The notes beneath the pieces were generated by a model that was not told the DNA's origin, did no database searches, and saw only the letters and a program-made list of their open reading frames with translations. A program made the position numbers and the translations under genes. This document shows positions 54,826 through 64,000 of a stretch of DNA of 64,000 nucleotides, piece by piece. The stretch covers positions 4,384,001-4,448,000 of the forward strand of contig OY970194.1 of the NCBI GenBank assembly GCA_963708075.1, given 5' to 3'. How positions within the stretch are numbered: the stretch's first letter is position 1; each line of letters begins with the position of its first letter. The stretch is from Sedimentisphaerales bacterium. Lineage in GTDB: Bacteria > Planctomycetota > Phycisphaerae > Sedimentisphaerales > Anaerobacaceae.

Positions 54826-56430
54826 TTACTCCTGCACGAGGACGGAAGCAGGGAGCGCGTCTTCCATTTTGAAGGCCGATGATGCCTTGCGCAAATCATT
54901 CCCCTGCAACAGAACGTCCCGGCTCTTCTCGCCGCGCACTTGAAGGAATGTCTGCGTTCCGGGCACCGCCCGGCAGCCGTGGATAAAGGCATCTGAGACA
55001 TTCTTAAGATCGACCACGGCGCCGTCGTCGTGCGGTGCGAGCGTCTGGAAGCCCTCGATCTCCAGGCCCACAATATTCTCGCAAATCAGGGCCGGGCCCT
55101 TCTTCGTGTTGATTCGCATGTCGTGGAAAGTAATGTTCTTGCCGTCCGTGCACGAGAAGCCCTTCTCCGCGTCGATGTTGATGTTCGTGAACGTGACGTT
55201 CTCGATGGGCATTTCCTCCAGGCCGAGCATGTAACCGGCGGCGGGCGCGCCTCGGACGATGACGTCGCTGAAGTGCATGTTCCGCAAGGCCGGCGTTCGC
55301 TCCGAGACCGGTTCCGGGGGCACTCTCTCGTAGAACATGTTTAGATCGAACGGGCTCCTCCGGATATTGCTCATCACGATGTTGCTGACGCGGATGTCCT
55401 CGACCGCCCCGCCGCGGCCGCGCGTAGTCTTGATGCGAATGCCGCGCTCCGTCCCGTCGAAGATGCAATTACTGATGGTAACCTTCCGCACGCCACCGGA
55501 CATTTCGCTGCCGATGACCACCCCGCCGTGCCCGTCGAGCATGGTGCAGTTGGTGACGGTGATATTCTCGCAGGGCCGCCCGACGCGCCGGCCGTCCGCG
55601 TCCCGGCCGGACTTGATCGTAATGCAGTCGTCGCCCACGCTGATGTGGCAATCGGAGATATGCACGTTCCGGCAGGAGTCGGGATTGATCCCGTCGGTGT
55701 TCGGCGAATCGTCCGGGTTCTTGATCGAAATGCCCGTGACGGTCACGTTGTCGCAGTACACCGGGTTGATCGTCCAGAACGGCGGGTTCTGCAGCGAGAC
55801 GCCCTCGATCCGCACGTTGCGGCACTCGAACGGCTGAATCATCGGCGGACGCAGAAAATTGCCCATCTGCTCCCACCGGGCTTTGGTGGGCGAATCAGGA
55901 TTCTTCTCCGCAAACATCTTCGCCCACTTGGAAGGCTCACCCTTCTTGTCCGCCGCCTCGGCCCTGGCCTTGCGCATGTAGTCCCACCAGGCCTTCCCCT
56001 GCCCGTCAATCCGCCCCCGCCCGACGATAGCAATATTCTCGGCCCGATACGCATAAATGCACGGCGAGAAATTGACGCACTCGGTCCCCTCCCATCGCGA
56101 CTTGACCATAGGCAGATAGTCATCGAAATCCTCGCTGAACTTGATCACCGCCCCGGCGTCCAGGTACAGCGTGATATTGCTCTTAAGCTGAATCGCCCCG
56201 GTCAAATACTGCCCCGCCGGAAAGTAGACGGTCCCGCCCCCCGCCTGCACCGCCGCATCGATAGCCTTGCGAATCGCCTCCGTATCCTTCGCCTGCCCGC
56301 TCCCCCCCGCCCCATACTCCCTGACATCATAAAACCCCCCCTTCCGTTCCGCCCCCACGCACCCAGCGCTGCCCGCCAGCACAACAACCGCCACCAACAG
56401 CCCCAACACGCACGAATGTCCAGCCTTCAT
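54826..56430 (-). CDS. GH28 polygalacturonase-family glycoside hydrolase (probable lipoprotein)
   Basis: NTDG, GDD, GHG, RIK catalytic motifs; GGGTVYFPAG; SAGC lipobox-like signal. Confidence 0.92.
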   Translation of the reverse strand: MKAGHSCVLGLLVAVVVLAGSAGCVGAERKGGFYDVREYGAGGSGQAKDTEAIRKAIDAAVQAGGGTVYFPAGQYLTGAIQLKSNITLYLDAGAVIKFSEDFDDYLPMVKSRWEGTECVNFSPCIYAYRAENIAIVGRGRIDGQGKAWWDYMRKARAEAADKKGEPSKWAKMFAEKNPDSPTKARWEQMGNFLRPPMIQPFECRNVRIEGVSLQNPPFWTINPVYCDNVTVTGISIKNPDDSPNTDGINPDSCRNVHISDCHISVGDDCITIKSGRDADGRRVGRPCENITVTNCTMLDGHGGVVIGSEMSGGVRKVTISNCIFDGTERGIRIKTTRGRGGAVEDIRVSNIVMSNIRRSPFDLNMFYERVPPEPVSERTPALRNMHFSDVIVRGAPAAGYMLGLEEMPIENVTFTNINIDAEKGFSCTDGKNITFHDMRINTKKGPALICENIVGLEIEGFQTLAPHDDGAVVDLKNVSDAFIHGCRAVPGTQTFLQVRGEKSRDVLLQGNDLRKASSAFKMEDALPASVLVQE

Positions 56431-56482
56431 ATCTCTGCTCCCCTTAATAGGTCCCACCATCTCCATCACACCGGCACTTCAA

Positions 56483-56912: not shown

Positions 56913-58052
56913 TTACACCTGGCGCAAGTGAATCTTCTTTTCTGCCATGTCAATTGTACCTGCTGGGACACCAAGCTTGATCAGGTATGGCTTGGCCTCA
57001 AGCAATATCTTTAGGTCATGTGCGGTTCTCGCAAACTCGCCAAGGGTGAACGTGTTGAGACGCAGAAGGTTGTGCGGGCGAGTCAGAAGTAACGATGCGC
57101 GGAGTTCATTCAGCGCCCCGGCTTCGCCGCCATAGTATAGACAGTGAAATTCACGGTTTATCTTTCGTTGAACGCGCCATTCAGGTGTTTTCTCAGTCTC
57201 CAGCGCATCCATGTACGGCTCCATCAGAGCATCGTCAGAAGAGTAAGAGAGCGCGATGTGGAATCCGCGATACAGAAATGGTTCATCGTACTCGGGAAAA
57301 CGCTTGGTTAACGACTTTATCAGACTCGTATCTCGCTTTGCCATTTTGCCGAGAACGAACACGGCATTTTGCCGAGCGACGACACAGTCAGAATCCCCAG
57401 CCAAGAAGATATCCTGCAACTTCTCAATAACAAGATCGCGAGCATTTTTCTTCTGTGCCTTCAGTATCTCTACTATCCGGCTCATCTCGTAGTATCGAAA
57501 GGGGGAATTGAGTAGGAGTTGGGCACGATTTCGTGAACCATGCAACAGTTCGTATATGATAGCATCCACATCGCGCACAACATATACTGTGTGATCACCG
57601 CTGCGAACCGGTTTCATTCTCGCATCACGAATTAACCGTGCCTCGACCCTCTGTGCTATACGTTCCGCATCGGCCGAGCGCGATCGCCAATGGAATACGT
57701 CAAAGAGGAATTCTGAGTATTCACGTGGCAGCCTGAAGTCGCCAAGAACAACGATGCCAAGTGGGATAGCTTCGCGAATGTTAAGAATATCAGCGAGAGC
57801 CAGTTCGCTCTTGGCCACCGATGTGGGCGAGAGTGACAGTTCAGAAGCCAGGAAGAGGATGAAATTCGAGTCCACTAGCTGCCGACGTGGGAGTATGGGG
57901 TCGCCGATCTTCAGAGCACCGCCACATGAGTACCAAACACGGAAACGAGTCTGGAGTTTCCTAAATAAGTATTCTGATGCTGCATGGTCTGCGCAGCGAT
58001 GAGAGAGGAACACTGTCGCAGCCTTGAAGGGCGAGTCGAACATGTGAAGCAT
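56913..58052 (-). CDS. TIR-domain protein with helical (HEAT-like) C-terminus
   Basis: VFLSH..D...VWY...IGD..FILFLAS..S..VAKSELALA (TIR_2-like, with putative catalytic Glu); ARQNAVFVLGK helical repeat; AT-richer than its flanks. Confidence 0.7.
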   Translation of the reverse strand: MLHMFDSPFKAATVFLSHRCADHAASEYLFRKLQTRFRVWYSCGGALKIGDPILPRRQLVDSNFILFLASELSLSPTSVAKSELALADILNIREAIPLGIVVLGDFRLPREYSEFLFDVFHWRSRSADAERIAQRVEARLIRDARMKPVRSGDHTVYVVRDVDAIIYELLHGSRNRAQLLLNSPFRYYEMSRIVEILKAQKKNARDLVIEKLQDIFLAGDSDCVVARQNAVFVLGKMAKRDTSLIKSLTKRFPEYDEPFLYRGFHIALSYSSDDALMEPYMDALETEKTPEWRVQRKINREFHCLYYGGEAGALNELRASLLLTRPHNLLRLNTFTLGEFARTAHDLKILLEAKPYLIKLGVPAGTIDMAEKKIHLRQV

Positions 58053-58117
58053 ATTTGCACCTCGCAGAACTATTGGTCCGAGGGACAAGACCTATTCTCC
58101 AATCATGCATAGGACCG

Positions 58118-59125
58118 TCATGCGCGCAACGCTGATATCAGGTTGAATAGAAACATGTAGAGGCACACTAAACCTTGTTTGGCCTCCAATGCAGTCACAT
58201 CTGTATGAACGCCCTTAGATGCAGCAGAATTCAGTTTCCTTGCGACCGCCATTAGATGTTCACATTCAGCGAGTAGCAAGCCACTGGACGATGACTTCGC
58301 GAAGGTACTTGAAAGGAACTCCTGCAGGCGGTTCAGGTACTGCTCATCTCCCATACAACGCCCTTTGCCATCTGAGCACACAACGGTGTTAGATGACGGG
58401 GGATAAAAGTAGTCAGCGGCTGACTTTATGGCTTTGCGCACGAGCGTCAGGAGTAAGGCCATATCCTCGGGATCATGCGAATCAACCAGTTGGGTTGCTT
58501 TCTCAAGCTTTGTATAGACGTCCTCAGAGTGCGCCTTAAAATAATTGTTGACATCGTTTTGAAGCGATTGCAGAAAGGCCTCAGATTTGCTTTGAGTTTC
58601 CATCTGCCTTTCCAACTGAATCAAGTAGTTCAAGCACCTTGTCTTGATGCGGTCTTTGATGGCTTGAACTGCCGCTATTTGAAGCCTGAGAGAAGCCTTC
58701 CGTGCGTTATAACGGTCGGCAAAAGCAGCCGTGTCAAACGCCCCCATGCCGCCTGGGACGACCATATCCTGGATGGATTTCTCTATCTGATCGATTTCTG
58801 GATCTAATTCCCCCACTCCGAGCACAAAGACATTCTTCGACGGGTCATCGAGATTCACGTTCAAATCAAGCGTACGTTCTGCGATCCAAAGCTCTTGTGT
58901 CCTCTCCCACAAGGAAATCCGTTCTTTCTCTGTGAGTTTGTTAGTATCTTCACGGAAAGCTCGCTTCAACTGGGATACATCCGGGTAAAGCTCACGAAGG
59001 AATAGTGCGGCATTGAAGTAGTCTTTCAGATTTCTTGACACCCTAAGACAAACCATCACGCCTTTGGCTACATCGTCGCGGTCTATGTGGTCATAGGCAC
59101 TCTTTATTAATACAGGATAGTCCAT
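58118..59125 (-). CDS. AbiTii-like/HEPN-like helical protein
   Basis: CLRVSR.L.D...FLREL N-terminus; EDMALLLTLVRKAIKSAADYFYPP..GDEQYLNRL..ASKGVH..EA C-terminus. Family call is from recalled motif similarity only. Confidence 0.5.
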   Translation of the reverse strand: MDYPVLIKSAYDHIDRDDVAKGVMVCLRVSRNLKDYFNAALFLRELYPDVSQLKRAFREDTNKLTEKERISLWERTQELWIAERTLDLNVNLDDPSKNVFVLGVGELDPEIDQIEKSIQDMVVPGGMGAFDTAAFADRYNARKASLRLQIAAVQAIKDRIKTRCLNYLIQLERQMETQSKSEAFLQSLQNDVNNYFKAHSEDVYTKLEKATQLVDSHDPEDMALLLTLVRKAIKSAADYFYPPSSNTVVCSDGKGRCMGDEQYLNRLQEFLSSTFAKSSSSGLLLAECEHLMAVARKLNSAASKGVHTDVTALEAKQGLVCLYMFLFNLISALRA

Positions 59126-59287
59126 GCATATTCCCTAACCGGTGGTTCCGGGATAACGAAGTGGTGGCGCCACATACATTCGCACGCACCACACCTGCCG
59201 CAGAGCCAACCCACAGTCTGCACACCACAAGGCGTCAAGCATAGCTTTTCTCCCCGTGACAGCGCACATCGATCTGTGAATCCACAA

Positions 59288-60172
59288 TTACACAATAGAA
59301 CCAACTCGGCGCAAAGGCAAGGGACAAATGGGGAACGAAGCCGCATGGGTCAATTCCGGGGACAGGATAGAATGGCTCCGGGGAAGGTTCCGGGAGGGTC
59401 CCGGGGACACAATACCAATTTCCGGAGTGGATACCGGAGGGTTGGCCGGCAACTGGGGCTTTGCCCGGGTGATCTTGACGTTGTCAAATACGGTTCGGCC
59501 GCCCTTCCGGGGCCAGGCCGCCAGACAAATGTAGACCTTCGCATCCTCTTCCAGATCGGAAAAGAGCCAGGTCTGCGGTTCGCCGATGAGGACCATGTTG
59601 CTGTCGTATACACTGCAGACGCACCGGTACTCGGTGACACGCTGGATTTGCAGGGTCAGGGGTTGGCCCGGCAGAGGAGGCTGCGTCGAGCGCCCGAAGT
59701 TCTTTGCGATGCCGCTCTTGTTATTTCCGCTGCCGGCGCTGAATCCGTAATCCTTCCATACATAGTTGTAGTTGTACTCGAGGAACACGTAAGGGCTCTC
59801 GTAACCGACGATAAAAGGACTCTGCCTGGTCCTGGTCGTCAGATAAAGGCTGGACGTCGAATTACGCGTCGGGTGCTCCAGCAACTGGACGCTGACGGTG
59901 TCCCCCACGCCCACAGTGACATCGGCCGTCATGCATTGAGCCATGTCGTTGAAGATCAGGCAGTCCTGTTGACTGATGGGGGTGGGATTCGACGTATAGG
60001 AATGCAGCTCCCAGGTGGCCGTATCGACCTGATTTCCGTCGAAGGTCTCTATTTCCTGGATCACGAAGCCGGCCCGGACGTTGGAAGGCACCGCCGCCAC
60101 GGACAACAAGGTCAACGCCACGATTCCGGGCAGACTCCGACACGATCTCTTCATGGCTCTTGATGCGCTCAT
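59288..60172 (-). CDS. Secreted hypothetical protein (lectin-like beta domain); 3' end runs through repeat elements
   Basis: GGAGGTG RBS, signal peptide, ETFDG..W...FDNVKIT; the tail after STPE is encoded by GGGGAC-family repeat sequence. Confidence 0.55.
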   Translation of the reverse strand: MSASRAMKRSCRSLPGIVALTLLSVAAVPSNVRAGFVIQEIETFDGNQVDTATWELHSYTSNPTPISQQDCLIFNDMAQCMTADVTVGVGDTVSVQLLEHPTRNSTSSLYLTTRTRQSPFIVGYESPYVFLEYNYNYVWKDYGFSAGSGNNKSGIAKNFGRSTQPPLPGQPLTLQIQRVTEYRCVCSVYDSNMVLIGEPQTWLFSDLEEDAKVYICLAAWPRKGGRTVFDNVKITRAKPQLPANPPVSTPEIGIVSPGPSRNLPRSHSILSPELTHAASFPICPLPLRRVGSIV

Positions 60173-60295
60173 TTCGCCACCTCCACAAGAACAGATGTCC
60201 ATTCCGCACTCCATTCGCAGCCACGCGCCAGCCGGGTCGTCCACTCAATTCCCGGCTTTGCTGATCTCCACGTACTATTGTACCGTTGGCCGGGA

Positions 60296-60350
60296 ATCTG
60301 GGGACGCGATACTCAATTCAGAACCGAGATTAGTAAGCTGTCCTCGGAAT
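60296..60350 (+). repeat. GGGGAC-family imperfect palindrome
   Basis: ATCTGGGGACGCGATACTCAATT...GTAAGCTGTCCTCGGAAT; inverted copy at 61361-61418. Confidence 0.75.
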
Positions 60351-60423
60351 GATTCTCCACCAATCCCCCGGTGGTCTCATGCGAGTACGGCTTCCGGGGG
60401 CTGTAGAAATGATTCACCTATCG

Positions 60424-60930
60424 CTATCGGATGATGGGGGCCTTGTACCCCCGCGGAGCTGCGGCAGGGGTCGTCTGCGGGGCCTCTGTGGCCGGTGTCG
60501 GTTCTGTGTGCCCGGGATCAGGCAGCAGCGTCACGTTCACATCATGGATGTTCCACATGCCACCCGTGAGCGGGTCCACCACCAAGTATCCGATCAAGCC
60601 GCCAAAGATGAAATTGCCGACGAGATACCAGCCAGTTTCAAGGCCCTGCGGGACGGGTGCGACCTGCTCCTGGTATCCGTCCTTGCGGAATGTCACGGCA
60701 TAATCCCCGGCAGCAAAATAACCACCACCCCGCTTGAGGCTCACGTTCGTAGGTGTGACGCCATTCACAACCGGCTTTCCCCGCTTGTTGATCACCTCGA
60801 ACGATGCCCCCGGCGGCTCACTGGCGATATTCACCGTCTTGTGGCTGCCGCAGAAGATCGACGCGCAGCCAGATAGGAGTTGCACCGAAATAATCAACAC
60901 TAACACCCGCACGATACTCGCCTTTCCCAT
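60424..60930 (-). CDS. Lipoprotein with PEGA-like domain
   Basis: AGGAG RBS; LLSGC lipobox; IASEPPGA..GVTPT.V.LKRG..VTFRKDGY; GNFIFGGLIG..VDPLTGGMW. Confidence 0.8.
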   Translation of the reverse strand: MGKASIVRVLVLIISVQLLSGCASIFCGSHKTVNIASEPPGASFEVINKRGKPVVNGVTPTNVSLKRGGGYFAAGDYAVTFRKDGYQEQVAPVPQGLETGWYLVGNFIFGGLIGYLVVDPLTGGMWNIHDVNVTLLPDPGHTEPTPATEAPQTTPAAAPRGYKAPIIR

Positions 60931-61075
60931 ACAAGACCGCTCCTTTCTCTAATCTCGCAACGCAACAGAATGAAGTGTCCGCCCATGGAATTCTGAACTC
61001 CAAAGACGGTTGACGTTCCGCGGCCACAAGGGAGTCTCATCAAAGGTGCTGCATCAGGCCGTCCAACAAATGACC

Positions 61076-61104
61076 ATTCTACAAGAATCACTGCGGTGCG
61101 TCAA
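61076..61104 (-). promoter_or_regulatory. Candidate sigma70 promoter for the PEGA lipoprotein
   Basis: TTGACG-17nt-TAGAAT, directly adjacent to the ~255-bp repeat. Confidence 0.55.
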
Positions 61105-61106
61105 TA

Positions 61107-61362
61107 GGGTGAGGGGGCCGTGTCTTCATTGTTCATTATTCGGGAGCGGCGTAGGGCTCGTGGCACAACCGCCGGCACCGGCAAAGCGGGCACCTGTTCC
61201 AGGGACGCGGCTCATCCTCCGTGCCGGGTCAACGCCATCGGCAAGCTCCGAGGACTCCGCTTGCCGCTGCCACCCGGCATAAGTCTTGACTGTATAAGAG
61301 CGTACATCCACCTTCTGCTTATGCGTAAACACTCAGGGCCGTAAGTCCACGAACTACAAGGG
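61107..61362. repeat. ~255-bp direct repeat, copy 1
   Basis: Highly similar to 62227-62475 (shared GCCGTGTCTTCATTGTTCATTATTCGGGAGCGGCGTA...CTACAAGGG). Confidence 0.95.
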
Positions 61363-61418
61363 AATTCCGGCAATATCTTACTTATTTGGGTCTTAAATTG
61401 AGTATGGCGTCCCCAGAT
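61361..61418 (-). repeat. GGGGAC-family imperfect palindrome
   Basis: Minus strand ATCTGGGGACGCCATACTCAATT...GTAAGATATTGCCGGAATTCC aligns with 60296-60350. Confidence 0.75.
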
Positions 61419-61438
61419 ACCAACGCCTAACATGCGCC

Positions 61439-62060
61439 TTAAGGCCTTCCGTCCTCCGGCACTCGGAACTTGCGGTTGGGGTCCTTCATCGCGTCCTCTC
61501 GCGTCACTTGAATGCGCTCCGTCCATTTGGGATTGCCCGTCACATCTTCAATCCAGAACTGGACCGGAGCATACGGGTAGCTTGCCCCGAGGCCATACTT
61601 GAGAGCATAAGAATGACCGGCCGCGAACTCGTAAGCAAGGCGCACAGGCTCCTTCGTAAAGGTCATAGCGATACTGGGCTCACCACTGAAATACAGCACC
61701 TCAAGCACGTGCCGGCCGGGCAGCAACTCGACGAGCCCCACAGCCAGTCGGATGTCGGACACTATCTGCGGCATCCCATTGATTATCTTGGGGTGTGTGT
61801 GCGCTCCGAGAACCACCGTGAGGGTACGCCTCCTTGCGCGGGACCGGAGGCCTGAATCCTGGATGACCCTCAATAGAAACCAGCACGTTCCTCTGAACGA
61901 CCAGGTAGGAGATCTCAGAGAGAGGTTTTGGCGAGCCGCTGTAGCTTTGGTTGACTTCGTGATCGTTGAAGGCGCACCCGCTTGCCAACAGGACCAGGAG
62001 CAGCCAACCCCATAAGCTCAGAGTGCATCGACCGGCAGAGATGCGATTTGTCATATCCAT
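61439..62060 (-). CDS. Lipoprotein, hypothetical (frameshift between ~61760 and 61870)
   Basis: AGGAG RBS; LASGC lipobox and YSG.PKP in ORF 61701..62078; VELLPGRHVLEV..F.AGHSY C-terminus in ORF 61439..61873. Confidence 0.65.
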
Positions 62061-62226: not shown

Positions 62227-62475
62227 GGGTGAGGGAGCCGTGTCTTCATTGTTCATTATTCGGGAGCGGCGTACGGCTCGTGGCACAACCGCCGGCAAAG
62301 CGGGCGTCTGTTCCAGGGACGCGGCTCATCCTGCGTGTCGGGGCAACGCCATCGGCAAGCCCGAGGACTCCGCTTGCCGCTGCTACCCGGCATAAGTCGT
62401 GACCATATAAGCGCTTACATCCACCTTCTGCTTATGCGCAAACACTCAGGGCCGTAAGTCCCCGATCTACAAGGG
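62227..62475. repeat. ~250-bp direct repeat, copy 2
   Basis: See 61107-61362. Confidence 0.95.
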
Positions 62476-62565
62476 CTTTCAGGTATTTTCACCGTCTAAC
62501 TTAAATCCATGCAACAATCGGGTCCGGCGAGCGTCTCTAGTATATGGTCTGTAGACCAGCTCTCA

Positions 62566-62672
62566 AATCAAGAATCAAACATCACAAATCAAACGTCAGA
62601 AATCGAAAATCGAAGCCCATAAATCCGGGAGAAGGCGGCAGGCTGGAGGCCGGAGACCGCAGGCGGGAGGCA
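62566..62672 (+). repeat. Two heptamer tandem runs: (AATCAAA)-type x7 and (GGAGGCC)-type x6
   Basis: 62566-62614 and 62631-62672, strict 7-bp period with degenerate units. Confidence 0.8.
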
Positions 62673-62687
62673 ACTACCAACATGGCG

Positions 62688-63459
62688 TGCAAAACAAAGC
62701 CAATTGGGCAGGCCGGGGCCCTGGGAGTGCGGAATACGGAATGCGGAGTGCGGAATCGAGGCGAGGAGCGGGTGAGCGAGTCTGCGAAACAAACCCAATC
62801 TGGTGGGGACCGGCGAATGCGGATTAGAGAATCATGCAAAACAAAGCCAATCCGGTGGCAGGCCAGGGCCCTGGGAGTGCGGAATACGGAATGCGGAGTG
62901 CGGAATGAAGGCGGGGAGCGATAGATGAGTTTGCGGAACAAAGCCAATGGCCGGGGACGGGCCCCGGACAACAGGCCGGGCGAGTGTTGGGCACAGCGCA
63001 TCCTACACGAGGACCGACGTATGAAACAAAGCCAAACTTGGGCGGGATGGGGCACTTGGGGGAGGGGACATTGCGTGCGGGGTGGTTCGGCGACGCGGCG
63101 GAATCCGCGAAACAAAGCCAATTTGGCGGGCGGGGCCCTGGGAATGCGGAGTGCGGAATGCGGAATGAGAGGCAGGGGTCGGGGACCAGGGACCAGGCGG
63201 TGGCGACGTTCGGTGGAGGGCGGATGGATGAGTTTGCGAAACAAAGCCAATGTGCCGGGGACCAGCCGCCGGGTCAGGGGAGCCACACGGCAGATCGCGA
63301 AACAAAGCCAATTTCGACAATCCAGCAGTCACAGGCGGAGGGTCAGGTCTGCGAAACAAAGCCAATGTGCCGGGGGGGCGGAATAACTGTAACCACTTAT
63401 GCAGAAAAGAGTTATGAGCGAACCGCATCGGTCCTGTCTGGAGAGAAACAAAGCCAATT
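62688..63459 (+). repeat. Array of 10 GCRAAACAAAGCCAAT repeats with variable G-rich spacers (non-CRISPR)
   Basis: Copies start at ~62688, 62783, 62835, 62932, 63020, 63106, 63235, 63296, 63350 and 63442. Confidence 0.95.
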
Positions 63460-63546: not shown

Positions 63547-63574
63547 TTGACAAGCCTTGCGGCGTGGTTACCAT
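63547..63574 (+). promoter_or_regulatory. Candidate sigma70 promoter
   Basis: TTGACA-16nt-TACCAT upstream of ATG 63635. Confidence 0.4.
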
Positions 63575-63634: not shown

Positions 63635-64000
63635 ATGAGAGCTGTATGTGCAGGTATGTTGCTGATGGCGATGGCTGTTGCGGGTTGTGCGTCGAGCAGC
63701 GGCGAGAGCTATGCCGCCGTCGGCTACAACTTCGGTGGCCTCGACAAAGTGGCGATCATCGAGGTCACCGGCCGCGTCTATGGCGACGCCGCCAAGAACC
63801 AGATCGCCAACATGTTCGTGATGGAGCTGATGAAAAAGGGCTACACCGTCGTCGAGCGCTCCCAGGTGAAGGCCCTTCTGAAGGAGCAGGAATTCCAGGC
63901 GTCGGATCTCGCCAGCGACCAGGGCGCCGCCAAAGCAGGCCAGATCCTCAACGTGCCCGCCGTCGTGATGATCGACATCCCCAAGTACGATAGTCAGAAG
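63635..64000 (+). CDS. CsgG/HfaB-family lipoprotein (3' partial; not in the ORF track)
   Basis: GGAGG RBS; MRAVCAGMLLMAMAVAGC lipobox; KVAII, GYTVVERSQVKALLKEQEF, AAKAGQILNV. Confidence 0.75.
   Translation, partial: MRAVCAGMLLMAMAVAGCASSSGESYAAVGYNFGGLDKVAIIEVTGRVYGDAAKNQIANMFVMELMKKGYTVVERSQVKALLKEQEFQASDLASDQGAAKAGQILNVPAVVMIDIPKYDSQK

Follow-up and report, generated by a model that had tools for sequence, protein, structure and literature searches.

Two described systems come closest to the locus considered here. In layout it is nearest to the NIME arrays of Neisseria, in which dRS3 repeats alternate with many families of 20–200-bp filler, unit number is dynamic and further repeats are found inserted; it has been proposed that these arrays are recombinase sites which raise gene exchange next door, and the part of the source drawn on here describes them as syntenic between genomes and not seen outside Neisseria (PMC1797815). 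In its core it is nearest to cosB of phage lambda (R3-I1-R2-R1), where, in the parts of the sources used, an IHF-like site lies between two of the repeated boxes (PMC4856287; PMC9611059). The locus itself lies in a 64,000-nucleotide stretch of a Sedimentisphaerales bacterium (contig OY970194.1, positions 4,384,001 to 4,448,000; the whole stretch is termed the window and the organism the host) and is an array of ten copies of a short sequence, box A. By sequence comparison, it belongs to a multi-copy element and represents a copy without the gene; the element is composed of a palindrome (palindrome B), a promoter, a gene of a family marked by the motif STGPRT, and a box-A tail with a second B.

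The box-A arrays resemble NIME arrays in their filler families (145 clusters among 244 fillers) and in their dynamic unit number. However, dRS3 is palindromic (ATTCCC-N8-GGGAAT), whereas box A is non-palindromic, unrelated to it and one-way; the box-A arrays are also non-syntenic (0 of 11 orthologous loci), occur in at least three phyla and are tied in cis to their own gene family and promoter, with an IHF-like site at a fixed distance. The parallel with lambda cosB and its small terminase (TerS) extends to a candidate cognate protein whose N-terminus is common to one small-terminase group. This homology covers only ~45 residues and is to an HGGxSTG-like TerS group instead of lambda gpNu1, and the box-A arrays, with 38 copies on the host chromosome, are without a cosN-like cut site, a terminase-large gene (TerL) or capsid genes.

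The array and the sequence leading into it are made up of the following features.

62455..62479, no strand: upstream palindrome B, the element's shared 5' edge, ~30 bp ahead of the promoter-like site.
62510..62547, + strand: promoter-like element TGCAAC-N16-CGTCT-N4-TATATGG, common to 18 of 38 arrays and to the gene-bearing copies.
62566..62613, + strand: heptamer leader of AAATCAA/AAATCGA runs.
62688..63459, + strand: box-A array, ten copies of the box (consensus TGCGAAACAAAGCCAATT) and nine variable fillers.
62707..62770, again 62857-62920 and 63124-63187, + strand: filler module GGGCCCTGGGA(GTGCGGA)n.
62984..63006, + strand: REP-like hairpin piece in filler 4.
63390..63414, no strand: palindrome B, TAA-N4-TT-N7-AA-N4-TTA, in the last filler, 24 bp after box 9.

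The boxes start at 62692, 62787, 62839, 62936, 63024, 63110, 63239, 63300, 63354 and 63446 on the + strand, and the ten same-strand cores at spacings of 95, 52, 97, 88, 86, 129, 61, 54 and 92 nt, listed in an original prediction made from the letters of the window, were matched exactly. With up to one mismatch the core occurs 11 times in the window, ten of these inside the array, compared with a mean chance expectation of 0.12, and 11 matches were found in 0 of 100 shuffles. The core had been given as ~16 nt, in place of which a conserved box of ~18 bp was found. It is indeed far more conserved than the spacers, with 12 core positions at 95–100% over 282 genomic copies and no conservation in the flanks more than ~5 bases out. 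Fillers 1, 3 and 6 are variants of one GGGCCCTGGGA(GTGCGGA)n module, as had been noted (family D5, 94% and 67%); with 26 fillers in 16 arrays it is the most frequent class of filler, and it has matches outside arrays too. The predicted REP-like half was found in filler 4, where we presume the REP label to be apt, and 13 Y1 (HUH) transposase matches are present in the host genome. The two heptamer runs ahead of the array were also located. The last filler is AT-richer, as stated, and contains palindrome B, which had gone unrecognised; the parent gene family and the upstream promoter were missed as well, leaving the first account incomplete. We take the promoter-like element to be an ECF-sigma candidate. 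Box A read on the reverse strand was tried as a sigma-54 promoter and rejected, with a GG-GC gap of 9 bases against the 10 bases of the sigma-54 consensus.

Stops are present in all three frames through the array. The spurious NKAN/KQSQ 'hypothetical proteins' that the original prediction had associated with such DNA are borne out in so far as KQSQ, NKAN and TKPI are three frame readings of one box, and codon-level selection, which would have pointed to an expressed protein, finds no echo in the spacings of gene-less arrays (81/57/67 modulo 3, no clear phase bias).

The host genome is 7.5 Mb in size with a GC content of 60%. It contains 263 exact cores, which group into 50 clusters; 41 of these have more than one copy, and each of the 41 keeps to a single strand. 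With up to one mismatch there are 282 boxes in 38 arrays of at least three boxes, so the motif also occurs elsewhere. All 24 genomes of the genus have box A, at 3 to 640 copies (control 0). Start-to-start unit length is 32–375 bp over 244 units, and arrays share filler clusters, nearly always in the same orientation (295 forward links against 3 reverse). Host-genome repeats outside arrays match 104 of the 244 fillers (41% of filler bases), and the low-copy filler matches proved on inspection to be short hairpin-type pieces, with no gene fragments among them. No match was obtained with this array in phage and plasmid records. A CRISPR-like capture of foreign spacers was therefore not upheld, the spacers being host repeats common to several arrays.

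Box A is lineage-specific at the present locus, being found at none of 11 orthologous csgG-like loci of relatives. Three of the 19 arrays in a related genome, G013, adjoin a gene that adjoins an array in the host genome too, the relatives being only ~75% identical. A ketopantoate reductase-like/mutS2-like intergenic site (neighbour names assigned by eye) carries the element in both genomes, in opposite orientations (1332264-1338623 in the host; 1121034-1122946 of contig C35 in G013). No replichore bias of box A was detected in the host genome (leading strand 16/38, lagging 22/38); 17 of 19 arrays on positions 1-1180000 of C35 are in lagging-strand orientation. Chi/KOPS-type polar motifs, which run with the replichores over the whole genome, were the comparison for these two counts. 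A survey of 120 other genomes of the phylum yielded the gene in seven and the motif in ten at 1–3 copies, a count near the control level (6 genomes) and informative on patchiness only.

Nine of the 38 host-genome arrays trail a family gene, and the other 29, including the present one, are gene-less. The nine gene copies, eight of which are intact, each lie immediately upstream of an array. Their product starts with MxSxAQVxANRRNAxKSTGPRTxxGK, and dN/dS over the first 95 codons is 0.18–0.55 in 28 of 28 pairs, indicating purifying selection. The 5' edge common to the copies consists of palindrome B, then the promoter-like site and then the heptamer leader, which in gene-bearing copies extends to the ribosome-binding site of the gene; at the present locus the gene is deleted. 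Several gene-less leaders retain a decayed start codon or N-terminal codons, and at an S46 peptidase gene common to both genomes, gene and array adjoin it in G013 but only the array does in the host genome. Because of the shared promoter-like site, the upstream B, the decayed codons and the S46 locus comparison, the present array is regarded as an internal-deletion derivative. A tree of the leaders, bearing on whether gene-less copies multiplied as such, was mostly unresolved, with one gene-less trio at 88/91 support.

The gene family comprises 39,148 clusters at 50% identity (E up to 0.001), and all but one of the 24 genomes of the genus carry it. Searches of the protein against Pfam, PHROGs, NCBIfam and PADLOC matched no family, transposases included, and MazF at E 0.37 was the sole match among PDB sequences. 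In the model the protein consists wholly of helices, long ones following a short N-terminal motif. Fold searches with this model (pLDDT 86) gave no match at E up to 0.001, the best (Z 8.0) being generic coiled coils, an outcome that excludes nothing, and the Atlas structure clusters obtained were unnamed ones only. By tblastn the protein matched no GenBank phage and gave three weak plasmid matches, and a second homologue gave no plasmid match. A second multi-copy family (MAxQATCHTCVYAH...W.RSLGSGW) with palindrome B upstream is present near host-genome positions 4008386, 5611178, 6887496, 515011 and 5968568.

The element's tail goes back to the A-B-A unit seen from box 9 to box 10 (92 bp), its ancestral core. 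Of the host-genome units, 17 of 18 (17 arrays) have B starting 22–24 bp after box A; from B to the following box A it is 26–27 bp (11 units) or 17–18 bp (7 units), resulting in A-to-A distances of 90–92 or mostly 81–82 bp, a difference of about one helical turn. A matrix trained on the 18 host-genome sites puts B 23–25 bp past A in 16 of the 19 arrays on 1.18 Mb of G013, and the pattern A-N22-25-B was found in five of five further genomes (168, 42, 62, 9 and 5 matches; control 0), where the length of the linker is kept and its sequence is free. B thus lies 22–25 bp after box A in seven genomes of the genus. At its symmetric positions, pairing was no better than with shuffled partners over 39 distinct copies, that is, there is no stem covariation. 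The fixed-length, free-sequence linker, the occurrence of B at promoters and this lack of covariation together form a signature of DNA.

Palindrome B is not restricted to the arrays. Sites above 16 bits number 79 in the host genome, including the 18 training sites, compared with 6 in a shuffle, and most of them fall between genes, often immediately upstream of promoters. The cumulative GC-skew minimum, where replication probably originates, is 65 bp from one of them (5191652). B is over-represented in three genomes in which searches did not turn up the gene (10 v 4, 13 v 0 and 17 v 2), is absent in five others and is below the control in one. Its presence in gene-less genomes and upstream of promoters makes it likely that B is a host-factor site. 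The arms of B resemble the IHF core CAA-N4-TTR, and three HU/IHF-family genes are present in the host genome. In the part of the source used, the IHF consensus is WATCAAnnnnTTR (PMC10380432). Within 52 bp after the first box A, this consensus (up to one mismatch) was found at 13 of 65 gene-box loci against 2.7 expected, and the core CAA-N4-TT at 20 against 3.2; the B copies of host-genome arrays match it only in the TAA/TTA ends and the A-run. B was also considered as a tyrosine-recombinase crossover site, for which the 11-7-11 shape fits, but the variable central 7 bases and the lack of an integrase near arrays make this less likely. No dif-like site was found in the host genome with the one pattern used.

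The relationship of box A to the gene was followed in loci from Planctomycetota, Acidobacteriota and Alphaproteobacteria, 73 of 80 genomic loci being used and seven dropped for contigs that were too short. Box A is downstream of the gene on the same strand in 57 of the 73 and inverted in 12, and it is upstream in 1 of the 57. In 37 loci the first box A lies inside the ORF (frames 23/7/7), and in 20 it comes after the stop. These loci do not give independent counts, because many of them are kin and some are possibly also among the genomes surveyed. Gene and box A travel together in three phyla. In one planctomycete family, a single-copy homologue without the N-terminal motif has no box A nearby (6 of 6 loci), which adds one lineage's worth of support for the coupling. 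At five of these six loci this homologue is just upstream of a fabZ/fabF-like cluster (names by eye) that we take to resemble the anammox ladderane-candidate cluster. At nine loci the tail of the gene has a divergent pair, an inverted box A being followed by a forward box A 118–265 bp on.

Loss of units was observed directly. In run X2 one contig spans 62618-62779, omits the next 567 bp (box 2 to box 9) and picks up again at 63347, continuing into the csgG-like gene; the joint has 14 common bases (GTCTGCGAAACAAA), and therefore seven units are missing precisely box-to-box in this single contig of depth 3.3. A contig of run X3, 94% identical, has ~57 extra bases at box 7.

The arrays are also polar with respect to their surroundings. 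With the element's own leader subtracted, non-orthologous DNA in G013 is longer upstream than downstream of 16 of 19 arrays (medians 4.4 v 1.3 kb, p=0.004), as judged from crude gene calls. Of the 73 gaps of at least 3 kb, 17 contain an array; of the 396 shorter ones, 2 do. The two classes total 430 and 261 kb, and 15 of the 17 arrays in large gaps sit in the downstream half. Of the 38 host-genome arrays, 30 have a lower GC content on their upstream side (p=0.0005). The arrays lie where variable DNA ends on the downstream side.

Further relatives of the protein were sought with a family profile, which identified 52 viral loci, most matching the first ~40 residues only. In many of these the gene is directly before an ORF of 460–680 aa, and a terminase-large profile matched six of ten such ORFs scanned, one weakly. 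Three of five motif-bearing viral proteins match a small-terminase PHROG and two of four pass the NCBIfam HGGxSTG cut-off; a literature search on HGGxSTG found nothing. The profile alignment with phage TerS is limited to residues ~2-46 and is partly circular, because the phage matches were chosen by the same motif. Small terminases have their DNA-binding domain at the N-terminus, according to the part of the source used (PMC9611059), and by analogy the N-terminus of the family protein is inferred to be a DNA-binding arm. The gene was rejected as a small terminase beside a large terminase, since only residues 2-46 align, no PHROG was matched and the host genome has no TerL-like match (tblastn, one reference).

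Single box-A matches in the viral database numbered 61 and were mostly chance-like. Ten were inspected closely, and seven of these lay on islands that also carry YqaJ, ERF, DUF5681, TerL or the family gene; the tandem box-A pattern was found in 0 viral contigs. YqaJ and ERF are a phage-type exonuclease and annealing pair. For DUF5681 no function is given in the part of the source consulted (PMC8954984). Metagenomic loci were selected for box A just before the gene start (80 of 120), and in the soil metagenomes, of the 37 loci with enough flanking sequence, 35 have ERF directly upstream of box A and the gene, preceded by YqaJ in the long loci; TerL or DUF5681 is present in 1 of 22 long metagenomic loci. 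These soil contigs are alphaproteobacterial by our reading. Four loci with YqaJ-ERF-gene modules have divergent box A on both sides and unrelated chromosomal neighbourhoods, and at one YqaJ-ERF locus two TIR-like ORFs (by eye) are downstream together with a second family gene in the opposite direction.

The descent by gene loss, the fixed A-B spacing, the co-occurrence of gene and box, the unit loss and the polarity are the observations on which an explanation can be built. The one proposed is that the array is a directional protein-DNA recombination platform, to which we would give slightly less than an even chance. An STGPRT-family protein would bind box A as double-stranded DNA, and the assignment of box A as its putative binding site is somewhat likelier to be right than wrong. 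A host IHF-type protein, for which B is probably the site, would bend the DNA there and work with the STGPRT-family protein. The complex would then act as a one-way recombination platform on which A-bounded units are gained, lost and swapped and neighbouring host repeats are taken up as fillers, while incoming foreign DNA would accumulate upstream, the array marking that edge. That such a complex promotes recombination or gene capture is put forward tentatively, as a possibility with the balance against it. A wider proposal, which is rather speculative and would have to be called somewhat unlikely, is a cross-phylum, integrase-free gene capture in which a terminase-derived arm on box A beside an IHF bend gives one-sided recombination; this would proceed via YqaJ-ERF in soil relatives and via enzymes of the host in Phycisphaerae, variable genes for defence and lipoproteins would accumulate upstream, and gene-less arrays would be amplified non-autonomous docking sites. 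The original prediction, an undescribed repeat system whose core is recognised, is upheld. Among the three guesses that it offered as to function, a DNA platform or recombination array fits best, and a CRISPR-like capture array or a processed non-coding RNA is not favoured.

A number of points weigh against a recombination platform. The host genome has no integrase beside an array, no enzyme cutting or annealing the DNA was found in it, and searches of it for YqaJ and ERF found neither; across the genus YqaJ is present in 3 and ERF in 1 of 24 genomes. Terminal repeats or target duplications were not seen by eye at the ends of near-identical copies (flanks of the nine gene copies), a comparison for which no close empty site was available. 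The unit loss comes from the one shallow contig, frameshifted gene calls in G013 inflate its 'non-orthologous' stretches, and the polarity is explicable also by insertion into already variable sites. As regards geometry, the A-B offset in other lineages is ~7 and not 23 (by eye), 20 of the 38 host-genome arrays are without an internal B by the filter used, and no helical phasing of all array spacings at 10.5 bp was found (Rayleigh p=0.14). Lastly, the terminase match is short and partly circular, and the position of box A directly ahead of the start codon in YqaJ-ERF operons fits an RNA operator too.

This last point belongs to the alternative which survives best, although it is unlikely, namely that the arrays produce a regulatory RNA in which many single-stranded boxes titrate STGPRT or another RNA-binding protein, box A being a translational or 3'-end operator in gene-bearing copies. 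It would be in keeping with the same-strand promoter-like site ahead of 18 of 38 arrays, the one-strandedness of all 41 multi-copy clusters, the basic N-terminal motif and the possible pairing of inverted copies with box A in the transcript. However, a free linker of fixed length to a promoter-associated palindrome without stem covariation is a DNA signature, the array transcript folds worse than 20 of 20 shuffles (z +2.1), and no terminator-like site was found on the + strand between the present array and the downstream gene. An Rfam search of the window gave no match and a tRNA scan nothing. The fold, the absence of an Rfam match and the lack of covariation in B also disfavour the processed multi-unit non-coding RNA that had been suggested, and a structured multi-unit small RNA was rejected on the same results.

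It is quite unlikely that the element is a packaging signal, with a domesticated small-terminase-like factor and A-B-A as a cosB/pac-like site that recruits the terminase of a helper phage or gene-transfer agent (GTA), thereby moving the element and its upstream DNA, or that serves as a phage-packaging decoy. The terminase-large genes behind same-motif phage genes, the small-terminase PHROG matches and the viral-database islands with gene or box A beside TerL and DUF5681 speak for it; A-B-A also resembles R3-I1(IHF)-R2 of lambda cosB (PMC4856287), and the pac site of P22 is inside its TerS gene (PMC9611059), both as given in the parts of those sources used. Against this, phage TerS loci have no box A downstream, TerL and DUF5681 are nearly absent from the long metagenomic loci, the homology ends at about residue 45, and the GTA-like cluster of the host genome has no STGP-motif gene and no array. 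Transduction alone would also leave insertion at new loci unexplained.

A passive selfish repeat, now without function, amplified where an intergenic site tolerates it through slippage and recombination between host repeats, and kept uniform by gene conversion, is decidedly improbable. The range of 3 to 640 copies across the genus, the share of filler bases matching host repeats, the absence of the array from 11 of 11 orthologous loci and the lack of a replichore bias would all suit it, but it does not sit well with a core conserved at 95–100% beside variable adjoining bases, with an A-B distance kept over a free linker, or with the conservation of box A across three phyla and the purifying selection on the gene. 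Very unlikely indeed is an insulator or a centromere-like platform (for the latter pSK1 Par is a comparison), in which a coiled-coil protein coats the arrays and shields the downstream core-gene promoter or helps segregate the excised element: arrays do lie between variable DNA and the promoter of a conserved gene, and the modelled protein has its long helices behind the short motif, but the downstream gene has the same direction at 26 and the opposite at 12 of 38 arrays (crude gene calls), orthologous loci manage without an array, and 38 dispersed chromosomal sites are unsuited to a centromere.

Other known systems are more distant. CRISPR arrays have a conserved repeat, variable spacers and an upstream promoter and leader, and box-A arrays are alike in all of these; they were excluded as CRISPR by their start-to-start lengths of 32–375 bp, by host-repeat spacers common to several arrays, and by the absence of Cas1 and of phage or plasmid matches. 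The earlier statement that there are no cas genes stands for Cas1, which was not found in the genome (93% complete), the search among cas genes being confined to it. REP/BIME elements have a hairpin unit in alternating orientations. Like REP/BIME-RAYT systems and miniature inverted-repeat transposable elements (MITEs), box-A elements are multi-copy intergenic mosaics, with gene-less derivatives outnumbering gene-bearing ones 29 to 9, and REP pieces occur as fillers in a genome with Y1 transposases. REP/BIME was nonetheless rejected, as box A forms no hairpin, 41 of 41 clusters are direct and one-stranded, and the REP-like pieces are fillers only. An internal-deletion derivative of a gene-bearing element fits the MITE model, but the associated protein is neither an HUH nor a DDE enzyme. 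The PICI (phage-inducible chromosomal island) proteins Rpp and TerI are non-phage proteins that engage terminase to redirect or block packaging, according to the parts of the sources used (PMC6739421; 10.1101/2025.02.27.640495). They are a precedent only, with no sequence or fold link found and none tested directly, and box-A elements are without island integrase or replication genes. The box-A arrays are set apart from NIME, cosB, CRISPR and REP/BIME because at least one defining test failed for each, and no description of the element was found in the literature searched (mostly open-access text, supplements outside its scope). A recombination platform of this kind, at the margins of newly acquired DNA, would be undescribed.

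The array is flanked in the window by the following features.

56913..61873, − strand: variable stretch upstream of the element, five ORFs.
62227..62490, + strand: repeat R2, a ~270-bp direct duplicate (88–97%) of 61107-61377, with a REP-like hairpin and two B-like sites.
63547..63574, + strand: sigma-70-type promoter of the downstream conserved gene.
63635..64000, + strand: conserved CsgG-domain lipoprotein gene.

The ORFs of the variable stretch are two lipoprotein-like ones (by eye), one of 318 aa, one with a weak AbiTii-like match and one of 391 aa, the last two being GC-poor (0.48 and 0.51 vs 0.60 for the genome). These two (56913-59125, −) are a possible defence pair; the AbiTii match is below the cut-off, and the 391-aa ORF is TIR-like at its N-terminus by eye, with no Pfam or PADLOC match. 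A gene of glycoside hydrolase family 28 (polygalacturonase-type) is found to the left of the stretch (54826-56469, −). R1 (61107-61377) and R2 bracket one small lipoprotein-like cargo gene (61439-61873, −), which looks like a cassette-style insertion, and parts of the R1/R2 repeat precede three other arrays in the host genome. After the stop codon of this gene there is a GTTAGGC word (61423-61429, − strand), presumably like an integron core site; the host genome has four tyrosine recombinases, none near it. At 10 of 11 orthologous loci a nifU-like gene is directly upstream of the csgG-like gene. In the host genome the nifU-like (3674454-3677475) and csgG-like genes are 770 kb apart, a single case, and on each side of the break an array lies within 2.4 kb and points outward.

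For the family itself, the outcome is that a very large group of proteins without a Pfam, PHROG or NCBIfam name gains a candidate cognate site and a partner site at fixed geometry. It also gains two functional neighbourhoods, recombination and packaging, and its function becomes testable. If the arrays are indeed recombination platforms, this would account for many spurious KQSQ/NKAN/NEPN 'hypothetical proteins' annotated from such DNA, and it would mean that islands can grow and genes be exchanged without an integrase, a transposase or a Cas protein.

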